Assembly (NCBI GenBank): GCA_039630245.1
Contig: JBCNVK010000003.1
Location: 88,754-152,753 of the forward strand
Reading direction: 5' to 3'
Source of the DNA: Bacteroidia bacterium
GTDB taxonomy: Bacteria; Bacteroidota; Bacteroidia; SpSt-205
Length of the DNA stretch: 64,000 nt
A program made the translations under genes and the position numbers. Positions 1,729-63,370 of this stretch are shown here, one piece after another. Numbering within the stretch: position 1 is the stretch's first letter; each line of letters starts with the position of its first letter. The notes below the pieces were generated by a model. It was not told the origin of the DNA. It worked only from the letters and a program-made list of their open reading frames with translations, and did no database searches.

Positions 1729-1748
1729 GCAAAAGTGCCTACTTTTGC
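1729..1748. promoter_or_regulatory. Back-to-back -7 promoter boxes forming an inverted repeat (GCAAAAGT-gcct-ACTTTTGC)
   Basis: TACTTTTG 1740-1747 lies 4 nt before GTG 1752 (+); CACTTTTG 1737-1730 lies 3 nt before GTG 1726 (-). Confidence 0.7.
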
Positions 1749-1751
1749 TGA

Positions 1752-2840
1752 GTGCGGTGGCTATTCGACCGCTATATCCCGCGCCACTTTCATTTAGATG
1801 AGGTCCTATCCCTTCCTAACCTTCCCCCACCAGCGCCAGCCCCTCCTCTTCGTCGGCGCTATAAAATCATGGCCCGCCTCCTTCGGTATGCGCCCCACTT
1901 CTTAGGTGGGGTAGTGGTAGTTTGCCTTTGTCATAAGTACTGGAAGTTTCTCCCGGCTGCCTATGAGGAGTGGTACCATACGGCGTATGTACTCGCTGTA
2001 ACGGGCCTGGTGGGGTATGGTACGAACTGGCTTGCTATCAAGATGCTTTTTCACCCACGCAAGCCGCGGCCTATCTGGGGCCAAGGGTTAGTCCCTGCCT
2101 ATAAGGGACGAATCGTAGAGCGCTTCGCCGAGGCCATTACGCGCTATATCCTAAACGAAGAGGTACTGCATCGGGTACTTCACGAGGCTGGGGTAGCCCA
2201 GCGGCTTGCTTTAGCCCTTACGGAGGGCACCTCCAGCCTCCTCAAAGACCCAGAGTTCCGTGAGGACATCATTCGCCGAGGCAAGCGGGTCTTGATGCAG
2301 ATTGTGCAAGACCCAGTACAGCAAAAGAAGCTCGTCCATGTGCTGGACATGCGGCTGCTTCAGGTAGCGCCGGCGGGGATTGCGGGTAGCCTTTTCCGCT
2401 CCTACCGCCAGCTCAACGAAAAAGGCTATAAGGAGGTACTGGCCCGCACCATACTTTCCCTACCGGAGGCGTTTGAAGAGGCTATGCGGCTCACCGCACC
2501 GCCCGAGGAAGAAATCCATCGAGCCATCTTGTCCCAAACCGAGGAGCTTGAATCCCTTATTGCCGACATTTTACGGGCGGTCATCACGGCCTTGCCCATC
2601 CATCCGATTATTTATAATCAGCTAAGCGGCTTTGATGAGAGGCAGCTGGAGCGGCTCTTTCTCTATACGACCAGCGAGCATCTGGAATTCATACAGAATT
2701 TGGGGGCCCTTCTGGGGGTGTTGGCCGGGGTTTTCATCATGAATCCCTGGCTTTCCTTGGGTGGAGCTACCCTTACGATTGGCGGGCTCTGGATTTTGGA
2801 CGAGCTGCTCTATCGCTGGCAGAATCGGCGGCGTGCGTAG
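1752..2840 (+). CDS. DUF445 family membrane protein
   Basis: GLVGYGTNWLAIKMLFHP..GLVP near the N-terminus and HLEFIQNLGALLG near the C-terminus. Confidence 0.85.
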   Translation: MRWLFDRYIPRHFHLDEVLSLPNLPPPAPAPPLRRRYKIMARLLRYAPHFLGGVVVVCLCHKYWKFLPAAYEEWYHTAYVLAVTGLVGYGTNWLAIKMLFHPRKPRPIWGQGLVPAYKGRIVERFAEAITRYILNEEVLHRVLHEAGVAQRLALALTEGTSSLLKDPEFREDIIRRGKRVLMQIVQDPVQQKKLVHVLDMRLLQVAPAGIAGSLFRSYRQLNEKGYKEVLARTILSLPEAFEEAMRLTAPPEEEIHRAILSQTEELESLIADILRAVITALPIHPIIYNQLSGFDERQLERLFLYTTSEHLEFIQNLGALLGVLAGVFIMNPWLSLGGATLTIGGLWILDELLYRWQNRRRA

Positions 2841-4326
2841 GTTGTGGGCGCGCTATGTGGCAGGTGACCCGGCCCTAAGCGGGCTTTTGCTAGAGCATTA
2901 TGCCACCCCGTCTTGGGAGGCCGTCCGCCGTCGTAAAGCGGCCTTTCCGTATGACCGTTCCCGCCTCGTGGCGGCTCTAGAGCGGCAAAACGCCCCCTTT
3001 TTAGCAACCTATCCAGCTTTACGAGGGCTTTTGGAGGCTTTGCGTCAACCTACTACTTTCACCATCACTACGGGCCAGCAGCTGGGGTGGCTCACTGGCC
3101 CACTTTATACGATTATCAAGGCGCTTCATACCTGCCAGTTAGCGCAGCAGGTGGAGGCGACCCTTAATGGACGCTATCGGGTTGTACCCATTTTCTGGCT
3201 TGCTTCGGAAGATCATGATGCCGAGGAGGTAAGGGAAATAGCCCTTAGCTGGACTCAGCGTCTGCGCTACGCTGGCTACTTTCAAGGCCCGGTAGGTCGG
3301 CACATAATTGAGGCAGCCTTTCCCGAAGCGGCCCAGTCCCTGGCGCTTCAGCGTTTCTGGCAGGCCGGCCTTTCATGGGAGATGGCTTTCCGCTCAGCTT
3401 TCTATGCGCTCTTTGAAGGGCGAATTCTTCTTGTTTCAGGCGATGACCCTGAGCTCAAAGCCCTTGCAGCTTCCCTCTGGGTGCGTGAGGTAGAGGAGCA
3501 GCTCACCTTACACAGCCATCGCTTGGCCTGTGCCTACCTGCGTCGCATAGGCGAGAGACCCCTGCTGGCTTCGCGCGCCGTAAATCTTTTTTGGCTCTCG
3601 GATACGGAGCGCCGCTATCCTACCCCAGAAGAAGAGGCCCTTCTGCGCCGTGCGGCTCATGCGGAGCCGCACCGCCTCAGCCCAAACGTACTTCTACGGC
3701 CCCTCTACCAAGAGTACCTCCTTCCCAACTTAGCCTACCTTGCGGGGCCGGCGGAGGTGGCTTACTGGATAGAGCTTATGCCTACCTTTTCGGCATTTGG
3801 CGTGCCGCCGCCGCTGATTTATCCGCGCGGGCATTTGCGTGTGTTACCGGCTACAGCACTTGAGCTGCCTTCTGACTGGGCGTTGCCTGATTTATGGCGA
3901 GTGCCCTTTGCCAATCTACGCCGTGCGCTGGCGGAGGCCTGGGGCAGCGACGAAGTAGAACAGCTTATGGCCTGGTGGCGCCAGCATCGCCCCCCCCTTG
4001 AGAACCTACAAGGCCGGCCTTTCCTGCGCCATACCCTGCGCCTAATGGAGCGCTTCTGGCAAAAGTGGGGCGAAAAGCTCCGGCAAGCCGCCTTACGCGC
4101 TACCTATACCCAAAAGGCCGAAGCCATTCAAGAAATCTTGGCCTATCGCCTAGCCGTAGAACCCCCCGAGGCCCTTCAGGAACGCACCCTAAATGTCCAT
4201 GCCTTTAGCGAGGACCCTATTACTTGGGTTCAAAAGCTTGGCGAAAGCCTCTCTTTCCAGCCGGCGCAGTGGCACTACTGGATCACACCTGAGCCTCTAC
4301 CTTACCTCAGGCCAGAGCAGATTTGA
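2833..4326 (+). CDS. bshC: Bacillithiol biosynthesis cysteine-adding enzyme BshC
   Basis: TTGQQLGWLTGPLYTIIK, VPIFWLASEDHD, SPNVLLRPLYQE, YLAGPAEVAYW and LQER motifs. Start placed at GTG 2833 overlapping the upstream stop (ORF track 2761). Confidence 0.9.
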   Translation: MRRLWARYVAGDPALSGLLLEHYATPSWEAVRRRKAAFPYDRSRLVAALERQNAPFLATYPALRGLLEALRQPTTFTITTGQQLGWLTGPLYTIIKALHTCQLAQQVEATLNGRYRVVPIFWLASEDHDAEEVREIALSWTQRLRYAGYFQGPVGRHIIEAAFPEAAQSLALQRFWQAGLSWEMAFRSAFYALFEGRILLVSGDDPELKALAASLWVREVEEQLTLHSHRLACAYLRRIGERPLLASRAVNLFWLSDTERRYPTPEEEALLRRAAHAEPHRLSPNVLLRPLYQEYLLPNLAYLAGPAEVAYWIELMPTFSAFGVPPPLIYPRGHLRVLPATALELPSDWALPDLWRVPFANLRRALAEAWGSDEVEQLMAWWRQHRPPLENLQGRPFLRHTLRLMERFWQKWGEKLRQAALRATYTQKAEAIQEILAYRLAVEPPEALQERTLNVHAFSEDPITWVQKLGESLSFQPAQWHYWITPEPLPYLRPEQI

Positions 4327-4327
4327 G

Positions 4328-5071
4328 TCAGTGACGCAGGAAGACTTCGTATTGCAGGCCCAGCTGCAGCCCAATCAGCTGGTAGAAGGCCGGCTTGCGG
4401 TTAGGGTTGTAAAGCGGCGTCCCTTCGCTACCTAAGCGGAAGTTCTTTTTCTCCATGTCGCCCAGGCTTACCTCATAGCTGAGTAGGCCAAGAAGCCACA
4501 CTTGAGGCACTAGGCGGAAGCGTAGGCCAGCAGCTACATGCAGGCTGCCGCCTGCGGGCTGATACATGCGTTGGAGAATAAGGTGATCCTCTGGGCGGGT
4601 GCTACGGTCTAAGTAAGCCAGCACGGTTTGGATTACTTGCGGCGCTATGGTGTTACCTGGGCTCACGCTGTCCCCCTGTAGCGTCATGTCAGCCTGGGTA
4701 AGAAAGATAACGCTAGGGCAAAAGCTCATCCAGAGGCCCCAGTTTTTGCCTTCGCGCTGGTACTGGGGCTGGAAAGCTAGACCGACACGCAGGTAATGCA
4801 GGTTGATTTCGGCACTATAGTCGCGTCCGCTCAGCCCTAAACCGTAGTATTTCTGCCCCACGCCCTGGTAGGCTAGCTCTATCCCCGCTCGGAGGAAAGG
4901 CTGCCAACCCCAGCTCAAAAATCCCGTTATGCCTGCGGTGTAAGTAGGCGAAAAGCTTACGAGGGGAGAGGTCTTATCGGTAGGGCAGGCGATGTGCGAG
5001 TTCATCAGCTGAACCCGTGCACCCATGCTCAAGGCCGACTGAAGCCATATCAAACACCCACCAAGGCTCAT
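4328..5071 (-). CDS. Outer-membrane beta-barrel protein (PorT/OMP_b-brl-like)
   Basis: Alternating aromatic/aliphatic strands, ELAYQGVG..INLHYL pattern, terminal strand LQLGLQY. Confidence 0.6.
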   Translation of the reverse strand: MSLGGCLIWLQSALSMGARVQLMNSHIACPTDKTSPLVSFSPTYTAGITGFLSWGWQPFLRAGIELAYQGVGQKYYGLGLSGRDYSAEINLHYLRVGLAFQPQYQREGKNWGLWMSFCPSVIFLTQADMTLQGDSVSPGNTIAPQVIQTVLAYLDRSTRPEDHLILQRMYQPAGGSLHVAAGLRFRLVPQVWLLGLLSYEVSLGDMEKKNFRLGSEGTPLYNPNRKPAFYQLIGLQLGLQYEVFLRH

Positions 5072-5075
5072 GCTA

Positions 5076-5083
5076 CAAAGTTA
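5076..5083 (-). promoter_or_regulatory. -7 promoter box TAACTTTG, sharing its TAA with the aroC stop codon
   Basis: Matches Bacteroidota TAnnTTTG; 4 nt before ATG 5071. Confidence 0.7.
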
Positions 5084-6157: not shown

Positions 6158-7547
6158 AGGCGCCTATATCAGGCTGAGCATCACGCGGTCGCCCCAAAAG
6201 ATCAACCATGGGGGTAAGGCCGGGTTCGTTCTTACCTCGGTCTATGAGGGGGCTTTCGGCACGCAGCGGATAGAATTCCGCCGCCGGCCCTACCTCTAAG
6301 CTGCGGGGATAGAGGTGACCCGGACCCGGTAAGGGATTTTTCTGCTGGAAGGCGCAAAACTCCCAGCTTAGCTGAGGCTGGGTGCCGTAGGTTTCTACGA
6401 CCACGGCGTCTTCCTTCACACTCCAGAAAACGCTATTTAGGGCTTGCCAGTTCAGAGGGTAAGTGCGAAGGGTTTGGTCGGGAAAGCGGTAGAAGTCACC
6501 GATCAAGAGCGCCGTCTGACCGCGTCGGGGGTCTGGCTGGTCATACAGAAGGGTACAGTGAATAAGCTGGTAACTCCCCCCGCCGACGAAAGCCGCACAG
6601 GCTTGGCCGCACTGAAAAATGAGCGTATTTACGGCTTGGAGCGTGGGCTGGGGCGGTAGCTGCGGCGCAAAACTTAGCCCTAAAATTCCATAATTGGCCG
6701 CCTGATAAATGATACACCCCTCCAGGTAGAGCTTCGGCGCAGAGGCATCGCCTACGGAGTCCAAGCGTATGCCGATACTGCTTTGGCTGATGCGCGTGTA
6801 GAGGAGGCGGTTAGCGCGGCTTGTGGGCAGAAACCACAGGCCCTGCCACTGGCCCGCCGCGGTAGCGTAGTAGGGTTCTAAGCGCCATCCCTGCATGGTG
6901 ATGGGCTGGGCGGGGGTCCCTAGGGCTTCCAAGCGCCCGGCTATATATAACCCCGAAGCGAGCTCGCCGCGTAGAGGTCCGCTTTCCCAGCGCTTACCCG
7001 AGAAGAAAAGCCGTGTGCCCGGCAGAATGCGCAGAACTGCCGCCGGGCCTACGTAAAAATAGCCGTCAATCACTATCGGTTTGTCCGAAGGAAAGGATAC
7101 TATAGCGCTGTCAAATCCGAAATCCCTATAGACATATGCCGCTATGAGGGTAGCGCGCAGTACCACGGCCTGGAGGCCCTTTTCGGTTTCCCAGAGCAGG
7201 CGATCCATTCGGGTGTCGTTGACAAAGGTGGTATCCTGAAGGGTGAGGAAGACCTGCGCGCTATCACGCGGCCGAAGCGTGTAAGGCTGAGTAAGAGGCC
7301 CGGGCTGCCCATCAAAAATAAACCGGAAAGGACTCCGCTCGGCTTTCTCCAGGCGTATGGAGCGGATAACTACGGGAAAGGGGTGGGGATTATATACCCA
7401 CAGGCGCTGCGTAGGGGAGAGGAGGGTAGAGAAGAGGGAGTCAAATACGACGGTGTCGCGGGAGAAGCGCAATTCGCCAGCTTGAGGGGGTAGCCACTCG
7501 CGGCGGCAGCTCCATAGCAGGAGCAGCCCTATCCACACCCTACGCAC
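6141..7547 (-). CDS. Putative lipoprotein with Ig-like and right-handed beta-helix domains
   Basis: LLLWS-C lipobox, FSRDTVVFD, GQWQGLWF and C-terminal DLLGRPR..PDIGAYE. Start placed at GTG 7547, 3 nt after TACCTTTG (ORF track 7553). Confidence 0.65.
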   Translation of the reverse strand: MRRVWIGLLLLWSCRREWLPPQAGELRFSRDTVVFDSLFSTLLSPTQRLWVYNPHPFPVVIRSIRLEKAERSPFRFIFDGQPGPLTQPYTLRPRDSAQVFLTLQDTTFVNDTRMDRLLWETEKGLQAVVLRATLIAAYVYRDFGFDSAIVSFPSDKPIVIDGYFYVGPAAVLRILPGTRLFFSGKRWESGPLRGELASGLYIAGRLEALGTPAQPITMQGWRLEPYYATAAGQWQGLWFLPTSRANRLLYTRISQSSIGIRLDSVGDASAPKLYLEGCIIYQAANYGILGLSFAPQLPPQPTLQAVNTLIFQCGQACAAFVGGGSYQLIHCTLLYDQPDPRRGQTALLIGDFYRFPDQTLRTYPLNWQALNSVFWSVKEDAVVVETYGTQPQLSWEFCAFQQKNPLPGPGHLYPRSLEVGPAAEFYPLRAESPLIDRGKNEPGLTPMVDLLGRPRDAQPDIGAYEYLR

Positions 7548-7571
7548 ACACAAAGGTAGTTATCCCGTCAG

Positions 7572-7604
7572 GTGGAGCAAAGTGGGAGAGAGTGGCTATC
7601 TTTG
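7572..7604 (+). promoter_or_regulatory. dcw promoter: three MraZ boxes (GTGG at 10-bp spacing) followed by the -7 box TATCTTTG
   Basis: GTGG at 7572, 7582 and 7592; TATCTTTG at 7597-7604; directly upstream of mraZ. Confidence 0.8.
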
Positions 7605-7611
7605 CCAACAA

Positions 7612-8055
7612 GTGTTTCTATTTGGCGAGTACAAGGCGCGCTTGGACGCTAAGCGGCGATTTGTTGTGCCGGGGGCGCTGCTGGCCCTTTTGCCAGAGGG
7701 GGCCCGCACGGAGTTTGTACTGCAAAAGGCCCCTGACCCTTGCCTCTGGCTTTACCCCTTAGCCGTGTGGAAAGGGGAGCTGGAAAAGCTTCACGCGCGC
7801 CTCAACCTCTTTACACCTGAGGGCCGAAACTTCCTTCGGCTCTTTCAATCTGGGGCTCAGCCTGTGCAGCCGGATGCGGCGGGCCGACTCCTTCTACCTA
7901 AGCCATTTTGCGATTATGCGGGGCTGACGGGTGAGATTGTGCTTATCGGCCTGAAGGACCGCATAGAGATATGGGACCAAGCTCAGTATGAAACCTGGAA
8001 AACTCGGCACGAAAGCACCTTCTCGGAATGGCTGCAGAGGTTCTTGGGGAGCTGA
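7612..8055 (+). CDS. mraZ: Division/cell-wall cluster transcriptional repressor MraZ
   Basis: FGEY..LDAKRRF, DAAGRLLLP and RIEIWD motifs; first gene of dcw. The ORF-track start 7582 lies within the MraZ boxes. Confidence 0.93.
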   Translation: MFLFGEYKARLDAKRRFVVPGALLALLPEGARTEFVLQKAPDPCLWLYPLAVWKGELEKLHARLNLFTPEGRNFLRLFQSGAQPVQPDAAGRLLLPKPFCDYAGLTGEIVLIGLKDRIEIWDQAQYETWKTRHESTFSEWLQRFLGS

Positions 8056-19240: not shown

Positions 19241-20953
19241 TCAGTCCCAAATGTCAAACTCCCACACAATTGCCACGTAGTAAGCCGTATCTTCGGCGTA
19301 ACAGCCGCCGCAATTCATATCTAGTCCTACAGCGATACGGTCACCGCGCTCAAAGGTATTATTCTGATAGCAGTTGAAGGCGCGCCAGTCGTTATCGTTG
19401 GCTCCATCTATGTCGCTCATGACGGCGTAGTTTCCGTTGAAGGAGCGGCAGATGCGGCCGCGAAACTCCGGATTAGAACCGCTATCAGCTCCTGCCCGGA
19501 TAATCACCCGTACGATACGCCCTCTGAAAGGTGCTACCCACTGCTGCCTATAATCATTCAAGCCTGGCGTACCTGTACCTCCTATTTGGCTGTCGTCGCA
19601 GCCATCACCCCCTGGACAGGGGAACCAGAGCACCCGATTGCCTGGATTGCCGGTCCATACGCTATTGTAGAGGGTGTGGTAGCTTACGTGGCGAAAGCGT
19701 CCAAATATTTCGCCACTGGATTGGATGCGCATGCGTTCCTCAGGAGCTGGATTACCAAGAGCACCAGGCGGGGCGGTGTAAAAGCGCAGGTGAGCGCTGT
19801 AATTTCCGTCATCTTCGCCGATGATTTGCGCGGCTGGGCCGCCAGGCCGCCCGCGCCAAGGCATAAAGTCTAAATACGTTCTACGATTTGGATCGCCACC
19901 TGATGAAAGGCGGAGGCGCCCCCCTACAGCGGTATTCCCTGCATTGAAGGCGTAAATCTCCAGCTGCACCTGTGGGTCTGTAATGCCAATCCCTACATTC
20001 CCGATTTCCGTAATTATCATGCGAGTATTCCAAGCTCCACCCCAGTCGTTTTGTATGGCTAAATCATGGTTTCCTGTAGCGAAGCCCCAGCGCGCTCCGG
20101 GTACATCATTGATAACCAGATGGCGACCCCCTCCCGCATGTCCCACCACGAGGAAGTGGTCGGGATTGCTATTGCCTATCCCTACATAGCCCGCGTTCGT
20201 GATGCGCATCCGCTCCACAAGCGTGCCACTGCCATCGGGGGTGGTGTGGAAGGTAATTCGCCCGGGCATATCCGTGCTTGTGCCGCCTGTAGCGTCCGTA
20301 GCCATCTCTATACGGGCAGCGGATGTGAAGCCCGTACCATTGTAGCCTTGGGCATCTATGCGGCCTAGGACTGTACCGGCTCCACTCGTCGCTGTGGGAT
20401 TATCTATCGTCCCTTGGGCTCGGCGGAGGAAAATTCTATTCACGGCACCATAAGTAGTAAAAAGCGCAACCTCATTATCGCTCGGCTGGCGAACATCCAG
20501 CCGAGCATCTGGATTAGTGGTGCCAATACCTAAATTGCCGACATTGGTGAGGCGCATGCGTTCTTGATTGTTAGTCCGAAAGGCTAGGCCTGTATTATCA
20601 GTGGTACCGATGAAATGCGTAGCGATATCTGTGCCACTATTCCCAGTCAAGCGCCAGAAGAGGCCGTTTCCATCGCTCCAGGCCGGTACGAAGTTAGCCC
20701 CGCTGGCGGTGCTACTTAGCACTTGGCCAGCTGAGCTGGGGGCCGCTAACCACAGGGGCGGGGTGTCAGCGCCGCCTGAATAAAGGAGGGCGCCTACGGC
20801 GCCAGCTTGACCATTCGGCATAAAAGCCCCATCTAAGCGCAGATTTCCACTAACATGCAGGCGTTCCGAGGGATTAGCCGTGCCTATCCCTACATTCTGC
20901 GCCCATATAAGCCCGCCTAAACCCAAGCAAGCCGCAATGGTGTAATGCCGCAC
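19241..20953 (-). CDS. Secreted GIGT-repeat, fibre-like protein
   Basis: Signal peptide ending WA-Q; repeated (N/Y)(V/L)GIG.(N/D)P and ERMRI units; W.LTGNSGT..FIGTTD..LAFRTNN module; Cys-containing C-terminal domain. Confidence 0.65.
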   Translation of the reverse strand: MRHYTIAACLGLGGLIWAQNVGIGTANPSERLHVSGNLRLDGAFMPNGQAGAVGALLYSGGADTPPLWLAAPSSAGQVLSSTASGANFVPAWSDGNGLFWRLTGNSGTDIATHFIGTTDNTGLAFRTNNQERMRLTNVGNLGIGTTNPDARLDVRQPSDNEVALFTTYGAVNRIFLRRAQGTIDNPTATSGAGTVLGRIDAQGYNGTGFTSAARIEMATDATGGTSTDMPGRITFHTTPDGSGTLVERMRITNAGYVGIGNSNPDHFLVVGHAGGGRHLVINDVPGARWGFATGNHDLAIQNDWGGAWNTRMIITEIGNVGIGITDPQVQLEIYAFNAGNTAVGGRLRLSSGGDPNRRTYLDFMPWRGRPGGPAAQIIGEDDGNYSAHLRFYTAPPGALGNPAPEERMRIQSSGEIFGRFRHVSYHTLYNSVWTGNPGNRVLWFPCPGGDGCDDSQIGGTGTPGLNDYRQQWVAPFRGRIVRVIIRAGADSGSNPEFRGRICRSFNGNYAVMSDIDGANDNDWRAFNCYQNNTFERGDRIAVGLDMNCGGCYAEDTAYYVAIVWEFDIWD

Positions 20954-44241: not shown

Positions 44242-44261
44242 CCAACAAAGATAAAAAATCC

Positions 44262-45347: not shown

Positions 45348-45437
45348 ACGGCGAAGTTAACAGAAGCCCTCCTCTGGAGGCGCCAAAGGGCGGTGCAGGA
45401 GATGTGGAAAAGTGCCCTGTGGAAGGAGGCTCGGAAG

Positions 45438-47598
<2,161 letters not shown>

Positions 47599-47623
47599 AA
47601 GCCTCAAAGGTAGGGAAAAGCCC

Positions 47624-50446
47624 TTAGCCGAGGCGGTAGCGAATGGTAAGGTAGGCCCGCCAGGCCCATCGTTCCCATGCCGCTACGGCATCACGCGCCG
47701 AATTGAAGCTGTTTGCATTTCCCACCCGTTGCGTGCGGCGATAGGGCTGATTGATAAAGTCCCAGATGGCCAGCCGCACTTCCCACCGCGAACCGAGCCG
47801 ATAGGAGATTTGGGCTTCCCCAACTAGCCTTCCTTCTTCTATAAGGTGGGGATAAACATACGGATCAAACCCGATGGCCCAGATTTGGGCACTGGTGTAA
47901 TTGAAGAAGAGGGCCCCTTCCCAGCGACGGCGGGTATAAAGAAGACCCGCATTACCCACTATGGGCGAGTGGCCCTGTAAGCGTCCCTCCAACCGCCCTA
48001 TTTTACGCCAGACCGGCCTCTCTAGCGCACTCTCGCTAACCGTGATAGTGAGATAGCTCCAGAAGCGTCTCGTTTCAGTCTGCCAAAGGGTTTTCCGGGC
48101 CTCTATTTCTATGCCGACTATGTCGCCCCACCGACGCTGACGGCTGGAATAGGTGAAAACTAAGGTGTAACTCTCCGGTATTAGATATACTTCAGGAAGC
48201 TGGCGCAGATGCTTGTAAAAAAGTCCTATGGCGATCAGGTTATCCTTATCTCTTAGCCATTCATAGCGTAGGTCGGCGTTATAACTGCGAGCGGTGCGGA
48301 TAGTGGGTTCGCCTATCCAGTAGTAGGCCCAGAGGTAATCAAAGTAGGGCAGGGGTACTTGAGTAGGAAAAGGAGGACGCACTAAAGTTAGGTTTGCACC
48401 GAGCCGTAGGGTATGGCGCTCACCCAGCCAGCGTTTGAGCAGGAAGGCCGGAAGGAGGTGCCCGTCGCTTAGGCGGGTCAGGGTAGTTTCGGTTTCGGTA
48501 GCTATGGGGACGTTCCAAATTTGGCGCTGCCAGTGCTCGTATCGTGCGCCAAGCAGGGCTTCCCAGCGTGGACCTAAGCCCAGCCGTACCCAGGCATACC
48601 CGGCTACCGTCTGCGTTATGCCCCGATGCCGGTGGAAATCCCCCGTGCGCTCAATCAAGTACCACCCACCCGGCTGCCGATAGGGTAGGGCATAGACGTC
48701 TCGGATATTCTCCAAGCTATAGACCTCCTCAGGTAACGCGCCTCTTGGCCTGCCACCCGTCGTATCGGTTAGGAAACCTAGGAGTCGACCATGGAAGTGC
48801 TGCCGTTCCTGAGAGTACCAGCCGCCTAGGCGAACCTGAAGCCAACTTTCGCCCCCTTCCCACCGCCGCTCTAGGTAGGGATGTATATACCCTTGCCAGG
48901 CTCGTACCCGAGAGGTCCATACCTGCGCATATACCTCGGATGAACCGTAAAGCTCATGCTCGTACGAGAATGCCGTCGCACCAGGATACCGGATATAATT
49001 CATAGCGCCCGCTTGAGGGATGTCTTGACCTTGCAGAATAAGGCCGGCTTGAATAGCGCTGCGCCAACCGCCTTGGCTACTGAAGTGCCAACTAGGCCGT
49101 ACAATGGCTAAGTAGGAGCGAGGCAAGTAAAAAGATGAATAGTAGGCCTGTACGGGATTGACCGAGTCTATTTCAGGATTTATGTAGGCGCCTTGCTCAA
49201 GAGCGGTACGCTGCGTGGTACTAAGAATGCTGAAACCCTCCAGCATGAGGGTATGGTGAGGATGAGGCTGAAAGGCCAGATTCCAGGAGGCACCACCGCC
49301 CTGTGTGTAGTAACGCAGAGGATTAGAACGGCCTTTAACGGTGTAGTAGGATTGGAAGTGCCAGTGGCCATCTTCTTCTACAAAGGTGCCGTCATCAAAT
49401 CGTATGGCAGAAGCCAGATAGCGTTGGGAGAAAGCACCCCGCAAAGAGACTCGCCACTTCTCCCAGCGTCTGTCGTAGCTTACGGTAAGAAGGTGGCCAG
49501 GCGGGGCAAAAGAGAGCGAGTCAGGCACTGTGTAGCGCTCTACCCTCTGAGCATATTGGAAGTTCTCGGATGTAGGCACGCCGTTGTTTTCCGAAGCTTG
49601 AATTGTGTGGGGAGGGGGAAAGCCAGCCGGAATGGGAGAACGCAGCGGGGAAGAGAAGCGGGGGAAGCGTCGCCCTACCGCCGTAAAATCCCACTCGGTG
49701 GTGTAGGCTATCTGAAGACCTTCGCTCGTGGTTTGGGGAAGCTGGAAATCCACCATGCCGCCGCCGAAGTGGCCTAATAGTTCAGGCGTCCAAAACTTAC
49801 GTACCTCCACCCGCCCTAGAAGGGTAGTAATAAGCTGCTCTATCTCGCTGAAGGTAGCATCGTAGTTTAGCCAAGCCGGATAGGCCGCCCAAAAGGCAAA
49901 GGCATTATACCGTTCGCCCATTCCCCGGATAGAAATATACCGACCCGATAGGAGGGAAACCCCAGGCAGGCGCCGAAGTACATTCGGCACGTAGAAATCG
50001 GTGCTTCGCTTCATGATAAGCTCTTGGGAGTACAGCTCGGCAATTTCCAGGGCGCGCAACCGCTCTAAAAAGAGGCCGGCCTCAGTTTCGCGGGCTGCTT
50101 CGGCCACAATCGGTACCTCTTGGAGCTCGGTCTCCACCGCCGAGAGGCGCAAGAGGAGATCGGTCTCAGCCCGACTCAGCCCTACCCGCAGGGGGCGATA
50201 GCCCAGAAGGAAAACCGAAAGCGTATCCAGCCGTTCTACTATGAGGGTAAAGTAGCCTTTTTCATCGGTATAAGTACCCACGCTACCTAGGCGCACTTGA
50301 ACCCCCATGAGGGGTTCTCCTGTGCGGGCATCTATCACCCGCCCAGCGATGCGCTGGCGCACCGAAGGGGGACTGACTATAGTTAGGCGCTCTTCCTGAG
50401 CTAAGAGGATGGTAGAGAGGACAAAGGCAGCTACGAGTCTTTGCAT
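47624..50446 (-). CDS. TonB-dependent receptor
   Basis: N-terminal CarboxypepD_reg-like domain (GRVIDARTGEPL), plug (LRRLPGVS..IRGMGERYN), barrel strands (NADLRYEW); TATCTTTG lies 4 nt upstream. Confidence 0.85.
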   Translation of the reverse strand: MQRLVAAFVLSTILLAQEERLTIVSPPSVRQRIAGRVIDARTGEPLMGVQVRLGSVGTYTDEKGYFTLIVERLDTLSVFLLGYRPLRVGLSRAETDLLLRLSAVETELQEVPIVAEAARETEAGLFLERLRALEIAELYSQELIMKRSTDFYVPNVLRRLPGVSLLSGRYISIRGMGERYNAFAFWAAYPAWLNYDATFSEIEQLITTLLGRVEVRKFWTPELLGHFGGGMVDFQLPQTTSEGLQIAYTTEWDFTAVGRRFPRFSSPLRSPIPAGFPPPHTIQASENNGVPTSENFQYAQRVERYTVPDSLSFAPPGHLLTVSYDRRWEKWRVSLRGAFSQRYLASAIRFDDGTFVEEDGHWHFQSYYTVKGRSNPLRYYTQGGGASWNLAFQPHPHHTLMLEGFSILSTTQRTALEQGAYINPEIDSVNPVQAYYSSFYLPRSYLAIVRPSWHFSSQGGWRSAIQAGLILQGQDIPQAGAMNYIRYPGATAFSYEHELYGSSEVYAQVWTSRVRAWQGYIHPYLERRWEGGESWLQVRLGGWYSQERQHFHGRLLGFLTDTTGGRPRGALPEEVYSLENIRDVYALPYRQPGGWYLIERTGDFHRHRGITQTVAGYAWVRLGLGPRWEALLGARYEHWQRQIWNVPIATETETTLTRLSDGHLLPAFLLKRWLGERHTLRLGANLTLVRPPFPTQVPLPYFDYLWAYYWIGEPTIRTARSYNADLRYEWLRDKDNLIAIGLFYKHLRQLPEVYLIPESYTLVFTYSSRQRRWGDIVGIEIEARKTLWQTETRRFWSYLTITVSESALERPVWRKIGRLEGRLQGHSPIVGNAGLLYTRRRWEGALFFNYTSAQIWAIGFDPYVYPHLIEEGRLVGEAQISYRLGSRWEVRLAIWDFINQPYRRTQRVGNANSFNSARDAVAAWERWAWRAYLTIRYRLG

Positions 50447-50497
50447 CTTACAAAGATAGCTAGCAGCGGAATGAGCTGTAGGTTTTAGCTCAAATCG

Positions 50498-52605
<2,108 letters not shown>

Positions 52606-52638
52606 ACCACTGCAAAGGTAGGAACTTTTCGGCTTTTG

Positions 52639-53427
52639 TCAAGAGCTGGGCGCGCGCCGTTTGTAATGCGTAACCCACAGGGCATTCCAAAGGGCTAAGC
52701 TATACTCGGCCTGCTTGCGAAAGAAAGGGTAACCGCTCTCCCAGCGAGCACCCCGCTGCCAAACCGCTTGAAGGAAGTAAGTAGGATGAGGGTTGTAAAT
52801 CATCTCCCATACAATCCAAGAAGGCTGCACGCGTGCGAGAGGAAAGGGCGGCATGGCCTTCATCGCAGGAAACATCCCCACTGGCGTAGCCTGTACTAAA
52901 AGTACTTTTTCAGGAAAAACATAATCCTCGCAAGCTTCATAACTAATGCGCTGATGAGGCACTGAAAAGCCTACTAAGCGTGCCGCAGGCTCGCGGCTTA
53001 CAAAAAGAATAGGCACTTCAGGATAGAGCCGAGCATGCGCATACGCTACGGCCCGTCCTACCCCGCCTGTACCCAGAATTACAGCCATTTCCCAGGGTCC
53101 ATATACGCTTTCCATTTCGCCCAGAAGGTAATGGGCCGCTTGGTAGTCGGTGTTATGCCCCTGCCAACGTCCATCGGGTAAGAGGCTTACGGCATTTACG
53201 GCTTGCGTGGCCTCCACCTCGGCGTCACGCAGGTCTAAAAGCGGATAAATGGCGGTTTTGTAGGGAAAAGTTACATTGAAGCCAATCCAGCCCCGCTGCC
53301 TAATCGCTTGGCGCAAGTCGGTCAAATCGGGTGGGGTATACACCTCATAGGGCACACCAAAGACGCGCTGAAAAAGGAGCGGCGAAAAGGAACGCACCCC
53401 CTCACCAGCCAGTAGCCCAAGCTTCAC
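52639..53427 (-). CDS. aroE: Shikimate dehydrogenase
   Basis: SFSP, GFNVTFPYK, AVN, GHNTD, ILGTGG, ATPVGM and IYNP motifs; GTG 53427 lies 4 nt after TACTTTTG. Confidence 0.88.
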   Translation of the reverse strand: MKLGLLAGEGVRSFSPLLFQRVFGVPYEVYTPPDLTDLRQAIRQRGWIGFNVTFPYKTAIYPLLDLRDAEVEATQAVNAVSLLPDGRWQGHNTDYQAAHYLLGEMESVYGPWEMAVILGTGGVGRAVAYAHARLYPEVPILFVSREPAARLVGFSVPHQRISYEACEDYVFPEKVLLVQATPVGMFPAMKAMPPFPLARVQPSWIVWEMIYNPHPTYFLQAVWQRGARWESGYPFFRKQAEYSLALWNALWVTHYKRRAPSS

Positions 53428-53431
53428 GCGC

Positions 53432-53457
53432 CAAAAGTAAACCAAAACTTACCTTCG
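53432..53457. promoter_or_regulatory. Divergent pair of -7 boxes (TACTTTTG on -, TACCTTCG on +)
   Basis: Each box lies exactly 4 nt before its start codon (53427 and 53462). Confidence 0.7.
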
Positions 53458-53461
53458 CCTC

Positions 53462-54238
53462 ATGCGTCTCTATTTTGAGCGGCTGGGCAGCGGGGAACCT
53501 ATTTACGTTTTTCTGCATGGCCTATTTGGGAGTGCGGATAATTGGCGAGGCGTAGTCAAGCAGCTAAATCTACCCGGCACCTTTTACTTAGTAGATGCAC
53601 GCAATCATGGGCGCTCACCGCACGCGCCCTCTCATACCTACGCGGACCAGGCGCAGGATATTCTGGCGCTTCTCGCGTCGGAGGGGCATTCTGCGGCTCA
53701 TCTGCTGGGCCATTCCATGGGCGGCAAAACGGCCATGTACCTTGCGCTGAATTTCCCCCAATCCGTTCGCTCCGTAGTGGTAGGCGATATAGCTCCGCGC
53801 GCCTATACTGGTGGTCATGAGGCGATATGGGAAGCCCTTCGCCGAGCTGACCTTAGCGTGAGGCGCCGAGAAGAAGTGGAAGCCCAACTGGTTCCTTTTA
53901 TTCCCGATGGAGGGGTGCGCCAATTTCTTCTAAAAAACCTTGCGCGAGATGCGCAGGGGCGCTTCTACTGGCGCATTAACCTCACCGGCCTTTATGCGGC
54001 GTATCCGGCTATCTTAGCCGCTGTGTTCGGTAAGCCCTATACGGGGCCGGCCCTTTTCCTAAAGGGTGAGCGTTCAGAGTACCTTAGGCCAGAGGATGAA
54101 CCGCAGATAAAGGCGCTTTTCCCCCATGCGGTGGTAGAGGTAGTGCCTAGAGCAGGGCACTGGATTCATGTGGATAATCCCACTTATGTGGTCCAGGTGC
54201 TTGAGCGTTTCTGGGCCCAGCTCCTTACGGCCGCATAA
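53462..54238 (+). CDS. Alpha/beta hydrolase (YbfF-like esterase)
   Basis: HGLFGS, DARNHG, GHSMGG and AGHWIH motifs. Confidence 0.92.
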   Translation: MRLYFERLGSGEPIYVFLHGLFGSADNWRGVVKQLNLPGTFYLVDARNHGRSPHAPSHTYADQAQDILALLASEGHSAAHLLGHSMGGKTAMYLALNFPQSVRSVVVGDIAPRAYTGGHEAIWEALRRADLSVRRREEVEAQLVPFIPDGGVRQFLLKNLARDAQGRFYWRINLTGLYAAYPAILAAVFGKPYTGPALFLKGERSEYLRPEDEPQIKALFPHAVVEVVPRAGHWIHVDNPTYVVQVLERFWAQLLTAA

Positions 54239-56342
54239 AGACGTGCGTACATACCGTACGCGCCCGAATTTCCTCCGGATCAAGCGTCATTGGCTTGCAC
54301 TGGCGCTTGAGGTAAAGCGGGAGCTGGTCGTCGTAGTGCGGACTATTCGGTCTACCTGAAATCCCTAAAGGTAGCACCGACTCCACCTGCGGATAGGGCG
54401 CATCCCGCCGGAACCGTACGAACTGAATATAGGTATCTCCCGCCACGACCCGCAAAAATCCTCTTTTCTCATCCCAAATGGCATAGGTGGGCGCAAGCTG
54501 CTCAGGCAGGCCATCAAAGGGATACCGCTTGCCTTTTATTTCTAGCGCCTGTACTCTCTCTAAGGGCGGGGCGATATCTCGGTAGTAGCGGTAGAGCTGC
54601 TGCGTAGCATAGCGCAGGGACTCCCACAGGAGTTGGGCGGAGATAGTAGCTTTACCCTCTTCTAGCCAGTTGTAAGCTGGGAGGCCAGCTTTCTTGAGGG
54701 CATAGGCTACGGCGAGGCTGAGGAGGGAAGCAGCCCGGCTGCGTCCACTTCCCGACAGGTCCCAAGTGCGAATAACCCCCAGCGCTTCCCGCAAAGGCGG
54801 GGCAGCCGTATCAGGCAGGCTTGCATACGAAATCCATATCCGCTCTAAAGGCCCCTGGCGCGGGTATTGGCGGTCGTACTTGATTGCCTTGAAGTCTTCC
54901 CACGAAATCCGCTCTTTGGCGAAAATTAGCTCATGCAGGCGGCGCTCGCGATTATTATGCCTATTCCACTCCCAGGCGTGGTACGGAGGAAAGTCCGCCT
55001 GCCGCGGCGCCTCTTCGGGACAGGTCGTGCCAAAGGGGCTATTATTGACGCTGAATACTACGCCGCACTTAGGTGCCAAAACCTGTGGAAGTTCCTCAAT
55101 CGTTAGATAGCGCTTCCATAGAGTGGCGGTGGTGTCGCCCGGCAGTACCCCTTGCCAGTTGTACCCAGGCCCGCGCTCAGGTAGGAGGGCGTTGAAGAGG
55201 TAGTAAATTGTATCCTGGCGGTCGGCATACACGATGTTGAAGAGGGGTATGCCTTGCAGGCGGAGGGCTTGGTAAAACTCCGTGAAGGAGCGCGCCTTGC
55301 CCATTTCGTACCACTGCTGGGGCGCGCGGAAGAAGCGCTCGGCCGCAAAGCGTAGGGCATATACGCCTTTCTTTGTTCGCACAATAGGGCCGAAGCGGCT
55401 GCGCTCTATCTTCTGGCGAATCGGAATCACAGGCCCACGGGCGCGCTTGAGGCCGCCTACGGGCCAGCCATGGACAAATTCTATGCGTCGTCCAATCAAG
55501 CGTACATGCAGCCAGACCTGCTCCTCTTGCAGGGTATCCCACCTTCCATCTACCCAGTACACTCGTGGATTTTTAGGGTGCATGCGCAGCCGATAAATAT
55601 CCACGAAGTCGGGCCAGTTGAAGGTCATAGCCCACCCTAAATGCGGGTTAGTGCCGAGGCCAGGCGCCACCGCACCCGGAAAGAACCCTCCCAAAATGTG
55701 CCAGCCCTCCTCGCTATGCAGGAAAGCCTCATACCACCGCAAAAGGCCCTCCAATGGCACATGAGGATTAATCACTAAATAGGTGTGGCCATCGGCCGTA
55801 CGGGCGGAGCTTACCGCTATGCCGTTAGACCCCGCCTGCACCTCAAACGCATAATTTTCCGCTCTACCCTGAAAAACTGCTTGAAGGGCCTGACCTACAC
55901 CGACCATCCCGGCCAGCACAATAATGTAGCCGCGCAGAATGTCCTCTCCCCTTACTGGAAAAAGGGCATTATCTACTACCTCTTTGGGGTGGGCCTGAGC
56001 GTAGGCGTTGAGGCCCTCGGCGTAGCTCTCCAAAATCGCGCGGATAGCAGGAGAGAGGCTGTCATACTGCTGCCGCGCTAGGTGAAAGGCGCCTATAAAA
56101 TGGGCAAAATAGTCCGCCATGGCCCCCGTTTTGCCTAAAAGCCGGCCGAGGCGCCCTTGGGCTACCGCCATGAGATACTGGATGCGGCCGAAGTCATCCT
56201 CGGCGTGCGCCCAAGCTAGCCCGTACGCACAATCCACATCCCGTGTCCCAAAAATGTAAGGGGTCCCGAAACTATCGCGCCGAATTTCCACACGCTGGGC
56301 CAAGGCTAGCCCACTCAAACCTATGAGGAGAAGCCGCCGCAT
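54225..56342 (-). CDS. Penicillin acylase family (Ntn hydrolase, S45)
   Basis: [14 protein letters not shown] nucleophile site, NPH and PHYDDQ motifs. Confidence 0.9.
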
Positions 56343-56371
56343 AAGGGAAATCTACGAAGGGGGCCCTGCCG

Positions 56372-56453
56372 TGCCGAAGGTGGGACTCGAACCCACACGG
56401 GTTTCCCCACACGCTCCTGAGACGTGCGCGTCTACCAATTCCGCCACTTCGGC
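56372..56453 (-). tRNA. tRNA-Leu (CAG), no encoded CCA
   Basis: GCCGAAG..CTTCGGC-A, anticodon loop CTCAGGA, variable arm. Confidence 0.96.
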
Positions 56454-56476
56454 GTCGCGGCAAAACTAAGAAATAT

Positions 56477-57019: not shown

Positions 57020-57056
57020 GCCTTAAGAACAAAAAATCGCTTCCTAACTTTGTGCC

Positions 57057-57977
57057 GTGTTTCGCACCGGCTTACTTTTAGGCCTACTTCTTGTGGTTAT
57101 CTCAGCCACAGCGGGTTTCTTATACTGGAAGCTGCGTAAATCCGAAAGCCAGCGGATACAGCTTACCGAAGAGAAATTAGAGCTAGAGGCGGAGATTCAA
57201 AGCCTAAATGAAAGAATTAAGGCCATGGAGGCGGAGATTAATCGCAAAGATTTAGAATTAGCTGAAAAATCTAAAAAAGTGGATGAACTCTCTCGCGAAT
57301 TAGCCCAAGCCCGCACACGCCTGCGCAAGTACGAAGAGCAAGGTAAAATATCAGCCCGGGAAGCCGAAGAAATGCGATTCAAGCTTGAACAGATGAGCTA
57401 TTACATTCAGGAGTACCAAGGGCGCATTAGCAAGCTTCAGGAGGAAAATGCCCAATTGCGCGCACGTACGGCCGAATTGGAGAAGCAAATCCAGCAAAAA
57501 GAGATGCAGACCCAGCAGGTTATTCAGGAAAAGGAGCGTTTGGAGATCAAAGTCAAAGCCGCTTCCTACCTCAAGGCTACCGATTTCCGCTTTGCGCTCG
57601 TGAAAGATAATGGAAAAGAAGATTGGGATACAGATTTTCGCGCGCGCCGGCTACACCGGCTAAAAATTTGCTTCACGGTGCTGGAAAATGAAATCGCCGA
57701 ACCGGGCGATCGTACCGCCTACATCGTGATATCGGATCCTAATGGCAAGGTAGTTACGAATTTCAGCAAGGCCACCGAAGGTAGCGGTTACTTCACCGTA
57801 ATGGATACCGAGCAGCCCTTCTCGGCTAAAGCGACCTTCAACTACCAAAAAGCCCGTCAAGAAGTCTGTAGCCTCTACGAAAAGGCGCCTGACCACGAGT
57901 GGGTCAAGGGTACCTATCAAGTAGCCGTATTTTGCGAAGGTGTAGAGATTGGGCGCGGGCGATTTGAACTGCGATGA
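57057..57977 (+). CDS. Membrane-anchored coiled-coil protein with C-terminal beta domain
   Basis: N-terminal TM, long heptad region, LKICFTV.EN..GTYQVAVF; TAACTTTG lies 4 nt upstream. Confidence 0.7.
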   Translation: MFRTGLLLGLLLVVISATAGFLYWKLRKSESQRIQLTEEKLELEAEIQSLNERIKAMEAEINRKDLELAEKSKKVDELSRELAQARTRLRKYEEQGKISAREAEEMRFKLEQMSYYIQEYQGRISKLQEENAQLRARTAELEKQIQQKEMQTQQVIQEKERLEIKVKAASYLKATDFRFALVKDNGKEDWDTDFRARRLHRLKICFTVLENEIAEPGDRTAYIVISDPNGKVVTNFSKATEGSGYFTVMDTEQPFSAKATFNYQKARQEVCSLYEKAPDHEWVKGTYQVAVFCEGVEIGRGRFELR

Positions 57978-61993: not shown

Positions 61994-62206
61994 ATGCGAA
62001 AGATAGTCGTCTTAGTAGGGGCCTTAATGGGCCTAACGCTGGCCGAAGCCAAGATGGTCAGCTCTCTAGAGATAAAAACTTCTTCAGAGACCCACTCGGT
62101 GGTGTCGGTGGATCCCCGCAAAAAAAGAAGCCGAGTTAGGCTGGCTCAGCAGTACTTTGGACGGGGAGGAAAGTGCCGACGCTGGAGTCAGTTCTGTGGG
62201 CGTTGA
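61994..62206 (+). CDS. Small secreted cationic peptide (70 aa)
   Basis: Signal peptide MRKIVVLVGALMGLTLAEA; basic C-terminus with two Cys; followed by a terminator. Confidence 0.6.
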   Translation: MRKIVVLVGALMGLTLAEAKMVSSLEIKTSSETHSVVSVDPRKKRSRVRLAQQYFGRGGKCRRWSQFCGR

Positions 62207-62230
62207 GGCGCTCTTTGATTGAAGGTCTTG

Positions 62231-62266
62231 GGGGAGGGGCAGACTTTCTGCCCCTTCTCACTTTTT
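62231..62266 (+). terminator. Probable intrinsic terminator
   Basis: Stem GGGGAGGGGCAGA-CTT-TCTGCCCCTTCTC followed by ACTTTTT. Confidence 0.7.
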
Positions 62267-62302
62267 CCTAGATACCCCATTTTTTGTACCTTTAGGCCAC
62301 CC

Positions 62303-63370
62303 ATGCGGATGATTGCTTTCTTCTTAGGGCTCGGATGGGCCCAGCTTCAGCTTACTCAGGCCGACCTGCCCAGTGCGGGCGAGCAGTATATAGTCAGCCA
62401 AGCCCGCGCTTCTTTCCAGGTCGACTACCTGGCCACAGGAGCTGGCTACTCGTGGAACTTTGCCCAACTTAGTCCCGATACTCAGCTGAGAGTTGAATGG
62501 AAGCGTCCCACAGAAGTGCCACGGTATATCTTCAACTGCGGTAATCTCAGCTTTCAAGCCCTTCTACTCAAGCTAGCCGATAGCTTGGGTTCTTTTTCAA
62601 CACCTGGTTCTGGTACGATTCAAGCACGGGATTTATACGCATTTTTACGAAAGAGCTCTAGTGAGTTTGCGGTAAATGGTATCGGCGTTACCATAAATGG
62701 CCTTCCCATAACTTCCTGCTACAGAGACCCCGATGAAGTTTATGTCTTGCCTATGCAGTATGGCCGGCGGGATAGTACTACTTTTTGGGTACGCTTTGAC
62801 TTGACTTCACCGGGGGGGGCTCAAATTACTATCTCTCAGCGTGGCTACAGAATTCATCAGGTGGATGGCTATGGGACGGTTACGACTCCTTTAGGTACTT
62901 TTTCTTGTCTGCGCTTGAGGCAAGAGGTGCGCCAGTGGGACACCGTCTTCTTCAATGGACTTCCTGTGCAGCGGCGAGATACGAGCTATACCATTTTAGA
63001 TTGGCTTGGACGCGGGCAAGGGGTTCCACTTGTACGCGTCCAAGGCACCTTTCAGATGAACCGCTTCCTTCCTACGCTCGTGCAATACAAGGATACGCTG
63101 CGCTCTACAGGTTCTCCCACAGCTATGGCGGCGCCGTTTACTTTTCCAACCCTCCAGCCTAATCCTACCCGCGGCATGCTCTATATACCCCTACCTGGGG
63201 CGCGCTACATCCTGCGCAACGTAATCGGCCAAGTAGTGGGGGAAGGAGAAGTCCCACCAGAGGGCAAAATCCTACTTAGCTCCACTCTCCCAAGCGGAGT
63301 TTATTACCTTCAGCTCTTTTACGAAGGCCGAGAAAACTGGCAGCGGTTCGTGCTCCTAAATTCCGATTAA
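62303..63370 (+). CDS. T9SS type A sorting-domain-containing protein
   Basis: Signal peptide ending WA-Q, DGYGTVTTPLGTF, C-terminal PNPT.G..IGQ.V..LPSGVYYLQL. Confidence 0.85.
   Translation: MRMIAFFLGLGWAQLQLTQADLPSAGEQYIVSQARASFQVDYLATGAGYSWNFAQLSPDTQLRVEWKRPTEVPRYIFNCGNLSFQALLLKLADSLGSFSTPGSGTIQARDLYAFLRKSSSEFAVNGIGVTINGLPITSCYRDPDEVYVLPMQYGRRDSTTFWVRFDLTSPGGAQITISQRGYRIHQVDGYGTVTTPLGTFSCLRLRQEVRQWDTVFFNGLPVQRRDTSYTILDWLGRGQGVPLVRVQGTFQMNRFLPTLVQYKDTLRSTGSPTAMAAPFTFPTLQPNPTRGMLYIPLPGARYILRNVIGQVVGEGEVPPEGKILLSSTLPSGVYYLQLFYEGRENWQRFVLLNSD

Follow-up and report, generated by a model that had tools for sequence, protein, structure and literature searches.

A promoter box set against the start codon points to leaderless expression of first-in-unit genes in a family of Bacteroidia

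We analyzed a 64,000-nucleotide (nt) stretch of a Bacteroidia genome, G000:C23:88754-152753 (the window; G000 denotes the genome and C23 the contig), in which an octamer of the form TAnnTTTG recurs a few nucleotides before start codons, together with the genome that carries it (2.06 Mb in 39 contigs, 55% G+C, 97.85% complete) and family f1, which comprises this and 16 other genomes (17 in all) in two genera inside a large class. On the grounds of sequence, it is very probable that the first-in-unit genes of this genome and family are expressed in a leaderless or near-leaderless manner, by means of a -7 promoter box that abuts the start codon. Six independent lines support this reading: the spacing between box and start codon equals the published distance from box to transcription start site (TSS), only ATG and GTG are used at that spacing, protein genes carry the box at unit heads only, the box recurs before tRNA genes, very little space separates divergent genes, and orthologues keep the arrangement. 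What is shown below is how these sites are built, how they compare with chance, how well they are conserved and how far they are spread among taxa.

Genes were called as open reading frames (ORFs) of at least 100 amino acids (aa) that passed a simple codon-usage filter, which yielded 1620 genes and left genes of <100 aa uncalled, and boxed starts were partly chosen by the presence of the box. Throughout, an exact box is TAnnTTTG and leaderless spacing refers to a box ending 3-9 nt before an ATG or GTG. Chance in the window was judged against shuffles, and the genome pattern search used the backwards motif as a control.

The original prediction had listed ten start codons in the window with an octamer exactly 4 nt upstream and nine more with one at 3-9 nt. 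In all ten cases of the first group, the octamer occupies positions -12 to -5 from the start codon, as exact TAnnTTTG in seven (1752+, 5071-, 40497+, 44241-, 50446-, 53427- and 57057+), as TAnnTTCG in two (45347- and 53462+) and as TAGATTTC in one (56342-). The second group has an exact box at six of the nine sites (7547-, 3 nt; 22674- and 47598-, 6 nt; 7612+, 7 nt; 34327+, 8 nt; 32697+, 9 nt) and a box with one mismatch at the other three (CACTTTTG at 3 nt for 1726-, TACCTTTA at 8 nt for 62303+, and 20953-). The full pattern TANNTTTGNNNNRTG, that is TANNTTTG followed by 4 nt and RTG, was observed 7 times in the window, when 0.48 +/- 0.70 were expected, and 0 of 100 shuffles reached 7. Its TTYG version was observed 9 times (1.08 expected), and the box alone 44 times (26.9 +/- 5.5 expected).

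At the level of the genome, the anticipated peak near 4 nt was found, as the distances show a sharp maximum at 4 nt and then at 5 nt. When measured to the longest-ORF start (1606 genes), 143 genes have the box at 4 nt, 56 at 5, 32 at 7 and 14 at 8, on a background of 0-6 per offset; another 67 longest-ORF calls form an artefact peak, in which the TTG within the box itself was taken as the start. If any in-frame start in the first 80 codons is allowed, an exact box lies 0-12 nt upstream in 476 of 1620 genes, with 188 at 4 nt (145 ATG, 43 GTG, 0 TTG) and 83 at 5 nt, and 437 of the 1620 have an exact box 3-9 nt before an ATG or GTG, as compared to 55 and 19 at two control offsets. A count centred on the box, to the nearest ATG or GTG opening an ORF of >=100 aa, gave 202 sites at spacing 4, 83 at 5, 58 at 6, 49 at 7 and 34 at 8; of the 1424 boxes, 479 have such a start at 3-9 nt, 187 at 10-40 nt and 90 at 41-79 nt. 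Genome-wide, TANNTTTGNNNNATG (box, 4 nt, ATG) has 172 matches, as compared to 6 for the backwards control.

The identity of the triplet at spacing 4 is equally selective. Among the 1423 boxes of this count, ATG (172 sites) and GTG (56 sites) are the commonest triplets there, the next being seen 42 times. An ORF of >=60 aa is opened by 159 of the ATGs (92%; median ORF 317 aa) and by 50 of the GTGs, but by none of the 17 TTGs and none of the 18 CTGs, the baseline being 21% for all genomic ATGs. As TTG and CTG at this spacing never open ORFs, only purine-initial start codons are found there. In Flavobacterium johnsoniae, 4 or 5 nt are reported to separate the box, whose final G stands at -5, from the transcription start, and in Flavobacterium psychrophilum the box is reported at -12 to -5 from the TSS. 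Given this distance, a box 4 nt before ATG or GTG would therefore make the first base of that codon +1, which fits the exclusive presence of purine-initial start codons at spacing 4.

Could the box be a promoter next to an ATG or GTG that is not used, with translation beginning at a codon further downstream and leaders overlapping the annotated N-termini? This would be helped by the part played by the box in our choice of starts, and by several longest-ORF starts in the window that, judged by family models, appear clearly over-extended, by ~35-55 codons, namely those of the PorU2-like gene (26018-26149, +), LDH (46025-47125, -) and the RND (resistance-nodulation-division) permease (22696-26139, -). 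The PorU2 model, for example, begins at residue 51 of the over-long ORF, and the start was put at ATG 26147. However, ATG and GTG outrank all other triplets at spacing 4, and an unused codon would not be selected at one exact position. CysS, MraZ, SecDF and bS22, moreover, align from the boxed start or within two residues of it. Against NCBIfam models, CysS residues 1-486 align to profile positions 1-488, MraZ residues 3-138 to positions 2-133 and SecDF residues 3-964 to positions 2-977; residues 7-386 of the amidohydrolase (1726-) align to positions 8-388 of the CpsA model. Counted from their boxed starts, aroE, the esterase, DedA and the acylase already fall, if anything, slightly short of the length of their family models. 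The spacing at tRNA genes, described below, also puts the transcription start within 4-7 nt of the box. We thus regard a downstream start as highly improbable.

ATG 22674 also belongs to this set. It opens a 31-aa basic ORF between the genes of the RND permease and RNase G (window 22579-22674, -), which is ribosomal protein bS22, as residues 1-28 align to residues 1-28 of PDB 8fmw_V (E 4.2e-7), with a second structure match to 7jil_5 (E 2e-4). This ORF had no NCBIfam or Pfam match and was identified through solved ribosome structures; the bS22 gene is, for this reason, easily missed in annotation.

The box marks the heads of units. Among the 468 genes that head 234 divergent pairs, 296 (63%, a lower bound given the false ORFs in the gene set) are boxed at leaderless spacing, 220 of them by an exact box, and so are 109 of 161 tandem genes with gaps of 15-40 nt. 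Of 502 genes that overlap their upstream neighbour, only 23 (5%) are boxed. Most of the 234 divergent pairs have <80 nt between their start codons, and in 97 pairs both genes are boxed, 76 of these having 25-80 nt between the start codons, so that no room is left for upstream promoters plus leaders.

The same box is found where no translation takes place. ARAGORN detected 44 tRNA genes in the genome, of which 10 follow another tRNA within 0-3 nt and 34 are first in their unit. An exact box lies upstream of 29 of these 34, ending 24 nt before the mature 5' end in one and 4-13 nt before it in 28 (3 at 4 nt, 4 at 5, 2 at 6, 8 at 7, 4 at 8, 2 at 9, 3 at 10, 1 at 12 and 1 at 13); in the window, it lies 7 nt upstream in 3 of 3 tRNA units. 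As tRNAs are not translated, the box must be a signal for transcription rather than translation, and the distances imply that transcription begins within a few nt of it. The mode at 7 nt fits a start 4-5 nt after the box, which would leave a leader of 2-3 nt. Neighbouring tRNA genes abut without a spacer (0 nt) in seven pairs and lie 2-3 nt apart in three more, with loci at window 31141-31300 (+) and at G000:C1:6237-6394, C1:256487-256634, C23:59566-59724, C35:50201-50359 and C38:110567-110808. In such abutting tRNAs, one cut at the downstream 5' end would also form the upstream 3' end.

The fine structure agrees with the identification of the octamer, made from the window alone, as the -7 element of Bacteroidota, which is borne out by depletion of G at the free positions and by A/T tracts one and two helical turns upstream, as well as by its presence before tRNA genes. 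The two free positions carry G at frequencies of 0.10 and 0.06 (thus TAHHTTTG), and, counted from the first T of the box, A/T rises at -8 to -3 and at -16/-15, although these tracts are weak. The F. johnsoniae promoter is reported as TAHHTTTG with AT-rich motifs near -18 and -28, the -33 element being not evident. Similarly, no positional enrichment of TTTG upstream of boxes was seen genome-wide, in line with the observation in the window that a fixed -33 TTTG is lacking. A single sigma gene of the RpoD type, 292 aa long, is present in the genome, with one RpoD_Cterm match over positions 2-237 of 238; as ~50 N-terminal residues lie outside the match, this would, judged by length only, be a primary sigma factor without region 1.1, and a short form is the one expected for the phylum.

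These results bear on the proposal that the box acts in translation, as a ribosome-binding or Kozak-like signal on leadered mRNAs made from promoters further upstream. Bacteroidota do use upstream signals other than Shine-Dalgarno (SD), and GeneMarkS-2 is reported to find a motif near starts in 408 of 450 Bacteroidetes/Chlorobi genomes (90%), its group B of genomes with a non-SD ribosome-binding site (RBS); in addition, the TSS positions considered here are read from sequence. Such a role would nonetheless leave unexplained the presence of the box at 4-13 nt from the mature 5' end in 28 of the 34 tRNA genes that come first in their unit, its match to the experimentally defined -7 element, including the depletion of G and the upstream A/T tracts, and the lack of space for promoters and leaders between the divergent boxed pairs. 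Moreover, the group-B motif, which is A-rich and also lies close to starts, is described as preceding all genes, first and internal, whereas the box is almost absent from internal genes. We consider a role in translation extremely improbable.

As the window had suggested, SD was not found to contribute, since SD 5-mers lie upstream of 1-3% of genes in every class and of 2% of boxed genes; on the same numbers, SD use by internal genes was rejected. Tandem pairs overlap by 4 nt in 176 cases and by 1 nt in 31. Unboxed genes with gaps of 0-15 nt show a mild rise in A, to 31-37%, at about -17 to -13 and at -5/-4, where boxed genes show the box instead. The anti-SD, bS1 and bS21 had been singled out for inspection. 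No 16S rRNA gene was found in the genome itself, and two congeners were examined in its place; their 16S 3' end still reads ...GGATTACCTCCTTTCT, so that the anti-SD is retained but unused, the usual state in this phylum. bS1, bS21 and bS22 are all present in the genome. The gene for bS21, rpsU (G000:C23:38369-38530, -, outside the window), lacks an SD and is preceded by a variant box, TATCTTCG, that ends 5 nt before the ATG; a strong SD is reported for rpsU of F. johnsoniae and its relatives.

The arrangement is conserved between genomes. For cysS, the box in the window and in nine relatives lies 4 nt before the start in 9 of 10 loci and 5 nt in one (L007), with variation at the free positions of the box and divergence in the remainder of the upstream region across the ten loci; at the nine related loci, only cysS itself was comparable for promoter synteny. 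For a broader view, our genes were compared to 400 kb of a closed congener, G008 (median N-terminal identity ~70%). Of 57 orthologous N-termini of genes with an exact box, 50 are boxed 3-9 nt upstream in G008 as well, as compared to 10 of 113 for unboxed genes. Identity upstream of the box is ~32%, and spacing drifts between 4 and 7 nt from one genome to the other; this drift indicates that constraint acts on the box and on its closeness to the start codon. As a separate matter, the best CysS matches outside f1 (36-44% identity) are records from Patescibacteria, Dictyoglomota and Verrucomicrobiota, and not from other Bacteroidota, which could mean that cysS is divergent or was transferred, or could stem from bias in the search by peptide pattern.

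Within f1, each of the 16 other genomes has 137-223 matches to box plus 4 nt plus ATG, as compared to 2-23 for the controls, and all 17, our own included, reach ~71-106 net matches per Mb, a density obtained, like those below, by arithmetic from the match tables with rounded genome sizes. In the sister family f2 (G017), spacing 4 shows no excess (55 matches, 41 for the control) and spacing 5 a moderate one (98, 39 for the control); a 104-kb sample of G017, at 40% G+C as compared to 55% in our genome, holds 12 boxes at 3-9 nt and 22 at 10-40 nt. Across a class sample of 401 genomes at least 80% complete (two of them, G190 and G109, are unpublished, and no claim depends on either), the ratio of matches to controls is 1-2 in most genomes, and a sample from a typical member, G038, has 3 boxes at 3-9 nt and 18 at 10-40 nt. 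Family f42, however, comes close to f1, with 357 matches (75 for the control) in G057, 284 (80) in G100 and 306 (97) in G136, or ~70-97 net per Mb; a 121-kb sample of G057 has a peak at 4-5 nt (7 and 7), with 42 boxes at 10-40 nt and 21 at 3-9 nt. The f42 genomes are of ~2.9 Mb (36% G+C in the G057 sample), and f42 keeps the thiamine pyrophosphate (TPP) riboswitch. Families f66, f54, f55 and f30 have ~30-48 net matches per Mb, by our reading of the class table nothing else exceeds ~50, and in other classes of the phylum (~189 genomes) ratios are near 1, the highest densities being ~20-24 net per Mb (G571, G458).

The comparison with other Bacteroidota that had been called for thus places f1 at the extreme, with most Bacteroidia families lacking a comparable density of sites. 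A trait unique to f1 was rejected, given the similar density in the unrelated f42 and the low levels across the class, as was small genome size as the sole cause, since Bacteroidia of 0.5-2.0 Mb (G032, G033, G054 and G092) show no enrichment. Family f1 appears to be the extreme of a graded trait, with one unrelated family, f42, close to it.

We propose that the octamer serves the primary sigma factor of Bacteroidota as its -7 promoter element, and that it would abut the start codon of most first-in-unit genes in the genome and in f1. RNA polymerase would start 4-5 nt past the box, on the A or G of ATG or GTG or a few nt before it, and the resulting mRNAs, with no leader or one of at most ~5 nt, would be translated by the leaderless route from a 5'-terminal AUG or GUG. 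Downstream genes of a unit, without an SD, would mostly be read through stop/start overlap (ATGA), and tRNA units would be driven by the same compact design. The view first drawn from the window, that most unit-head mRNAs are leaderless or nearly so, is in this form supported by the sequence evidence, from which the position of the transcription start and the mode of translation are inferred.

Several points weigh against this proposal and need to be considered. Leaderless transcription is here a strong inference from sequence and not a demonstration. The gene caller (ORFs of >=100 aa, 1620 genes) is crude and makes the percentages approximate. Of the 468 divergent heads, 172 have no box at leaderless spacing, and leadered units exist, 34 of these 172 having an exact box 10-152 nt upstream; one leadered example is the PorU2-like gene, whose ATG follows the box at a distance of 18 nt. 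Spacings of 6-9 nt, which make up 162 of the 479 sites at 3-9 nt, imply leaders of ~2-5 nt and not of zero. Finally, the ribosome toolkit looks ordinary for Bacteroidia, so that gene content gives no independent sign of special initiation.

It could be argued that leaderless units are real but a minority, and that most units are leadered from promoters that go unrecognised, with degenerate boxes or alternative sigma factors. The 138 of 468 divergent heads that have no recognisable box at all would fit this argument, as would the small genes that were left uncalled. Nonetheless, the share of divergent heads boxed at leaderless spacing is already a majority as a lower bound, heads with an exact box have it at leaderless spacing in 220 cases and at 10-152 nt in 34, and among boxes with a long-ORF start inside 40 nt, 72% lie at 3-9 nt. 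A leaderless minority is, on balance, improbable, and we retain the proposal of leaderless or near-leaderless expression for most unit heads.

A more far-reaching version stands at perhaps an even chance of being correct. According to it, the whole of f1, as small-genome and probably thermophilic Bacteroidia, would have moved to almost untranslated-region-free expression, with a single -7 box, leaderless mRNAs, internal genes read by overlap, tRNA leaders of 0-5 nt with adjacent tRNAs abutting, and a loss of most leader-borne regulation. The TPP riboswitch was found in 0 of 17 f1 genomes and not in G017, as compared to 37 of 43 genomes of other families of the class, and no cobalamin riboswitch was found in our own genome. 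The gene thiC (G000:C12:236325-238154, -) is present, and its ATG stands 5 nt behind an exact box that immediately follows a hairpin resembling a terminator. The missing riboswitches and the boxed thiC are side evidence for a leader-poor genome. As to thermophily, the proteome has an IVYWREL value of 0.441, which, by the formula that relates IVYWREL to thermophily, is a weak indication that the genome is that of a thermophile.

The box sites of the window are collected in Table 1. By family-model matches, the genes of the window include parts of the type IX secretion system (T9SS; PorU2-like and PorE-like), a SusC-like receptor and BshC. The genes at 1726- and 1752+ are divergent partners with starts 25 nt apart, and between aroE and the esterase two divergent boxes stand back to back in the 34-nt intergenic space.

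Table 1. Boxes and the starts or tRNA genes that follow them in the window (positions of the window; spacing in nt from the end of the box).
Box	Spacing	Start codon or gene	Positions	Strand
CACTTTTG (one mismatch)	3	GTG 1726 (amidohydrolase)	1724..1737	-
TACTTTTG	4	GTG 1752 (DUF445 protein)	1740..1754	+
TAACTTTG	4	ATG 5071	5069..5083	-
TACCTTTG	3	GTG 7547	7545..7558	-
TATCTTTG	7	GTG 7612 (mraZ, heads cell-division/cell-wall gene cluster)	7597..7614	+
TATATTTA (variant); an exact box overlaps the GTG by one base	5	GTG 20953	20951..20966	-
TATCTTTG (22681-22688)	6	ATG 22674 (31-aa bS22 gene)	22579..22688	-
TATTTTTG	18	ATG 26147 (PorU2-like; short-leadered exception)	26121..26149	+
TATCTTTG	7	tRNA-Gly 31141-31214, abutting tRNA-Leu 31215-31300	31126..31300	+
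TACCTTTG	9	ATG 32697 (OmpA/PorE-like)	32680..32699	+
TAACTTTG	8	ATG 34327 (secDF)	34311..34329	+
TATTTTTG	4	GTG 40497 (cysS)	40485..40499	+
TATCTTTG	4	ATG 44241	44239..44253	-
TAACTTCG (variant)	4	ATG 45347 (ribonucleotide reductase beta subunit)	45345..45359	-
TACCTTTG	6	GTG 47598 (DedA family)	47596..47612	-
TATCTTTG	4	ATG 50446 (TonB-dependent receptor)	50444..50458	-
TACCTTTG (52613-52620)	7	tRNA 52532-52605	52532..52620	-
TACTTTTG (minus strand); TACCTTCG (plus strand)	4; 4	GTG 53427 (aroE); ATG 53462 (esterase)	53425..53464	both
TAGATTTC (variant)	4	ATG 56342 (acylase)	56340..56354	-
TAGTTTTG (56461-56468)	7	tRNA 56372-56453	56372..56468	-
TAACTTTG	4	GTG 57057 (coiled-coil protein)	57045..57059	+
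TACCTTTA (one mismatch)	8	ATG 62303 (protein with T9SS sorting tail)	62287..62305	+

SD-independent initiation on leadered, A-rich mRNAs has its main model in the Bacteroidota. A sister lineage with mostly leaderless unit heads would show that the same sigma factor and ribosome toolkit support a second mode of initiation genome-wide, and, if our reading is true, this would be the first leaderless-dominated lineage within the SD-independent Bacteroidota. Set beside Flavobacterium and Bacteroides, it would form a natural contrast for the question of how start codons are chosen by ribosomes that have bS22 and a sequestered anti-SD, and would provide a comparative system for what permits leaderless initiation, such as the link to bS22, which one paper proposes may influence it. 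For gene calling, longest-ORF or RBS-based methods will misplace many starts in these metagenome-assembled genomes. The genome is also compacted, in that hardly any spacer is left between promoters, tRNAs and terminators, and the TPP riboswitch, which is otherwise near-universal, was not found in f1.

In F. johnsoniae, leaders are reported to average 33 nt, with 87% longer than 10 nt; in Bacteroides thetaiotaomicron, ~3.7% of 5' untranslated regions are reported as shorter than 10 nt, and in F. psychrophilum 5.5% as leaderless. TSS maps of three model species give ~4-13% leaderless mRNAs, and 35-36 leaderless transcripts are listed for Segatella copri. Of 37 Bacteroidetes/Chlorobi genomes in an earlier survey, 1 had leaderless genes, at 2.4%, although that survey noted that it could detect Pribnow-like promoters only, and one paper states in passing that Bacteroidetes are reported to harbour many leaderless mRNAs. 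We found no leaderless-dominated Bacteroidota lineage in this literature, although the GeneMarkS-2 supplementary tables may hold prior in-silico hints, as 10% of the genomes fall outside group B. The arrangement described here joins leaderless expression to the -7 promoter of Bacteroidota, both of them known, on a scale unreported for the phylum in the literature searched.

When compared to the primary-sigma (sigma-ABfr type) promoters of B. thetaiotaomicron, F. johnsoniae and F. psychrophilum, the box here is the same (TAnnTTTG/TAHHTTTG), and so are the weak or absent -33 element, the A/T tracts near -18 and -28 and the short primary sigma factor (292 aa here); those three species, however, have ordinary leaders, whereas here the box adjoins the start codon in ~63% of divergent heads. 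The likeness to leaderless-rich bacteria, GeneMarkS-2 group C (mainly Actinobacteria and Deinococcus-Thermus, with 25-50% of operons reported as predicted leaderless), lies in a fixed short distance from promoter to start at first genes, the lack of SD, the 5' ATG or GTG and the large share of units concerned. Group C, however, uses a -10 box of the Pribnow type, placed 6-8 nt upstream of the start, and the genome studied here the Bacteroidota -7 box. With the archaeal group D, finally, this genome would share a majority of leaderless units and a box at a fixed distance from the start codon, but the archaeal promoter is of the TATA/BRE type at ~-26 and is served by different transcription and translation machinery.

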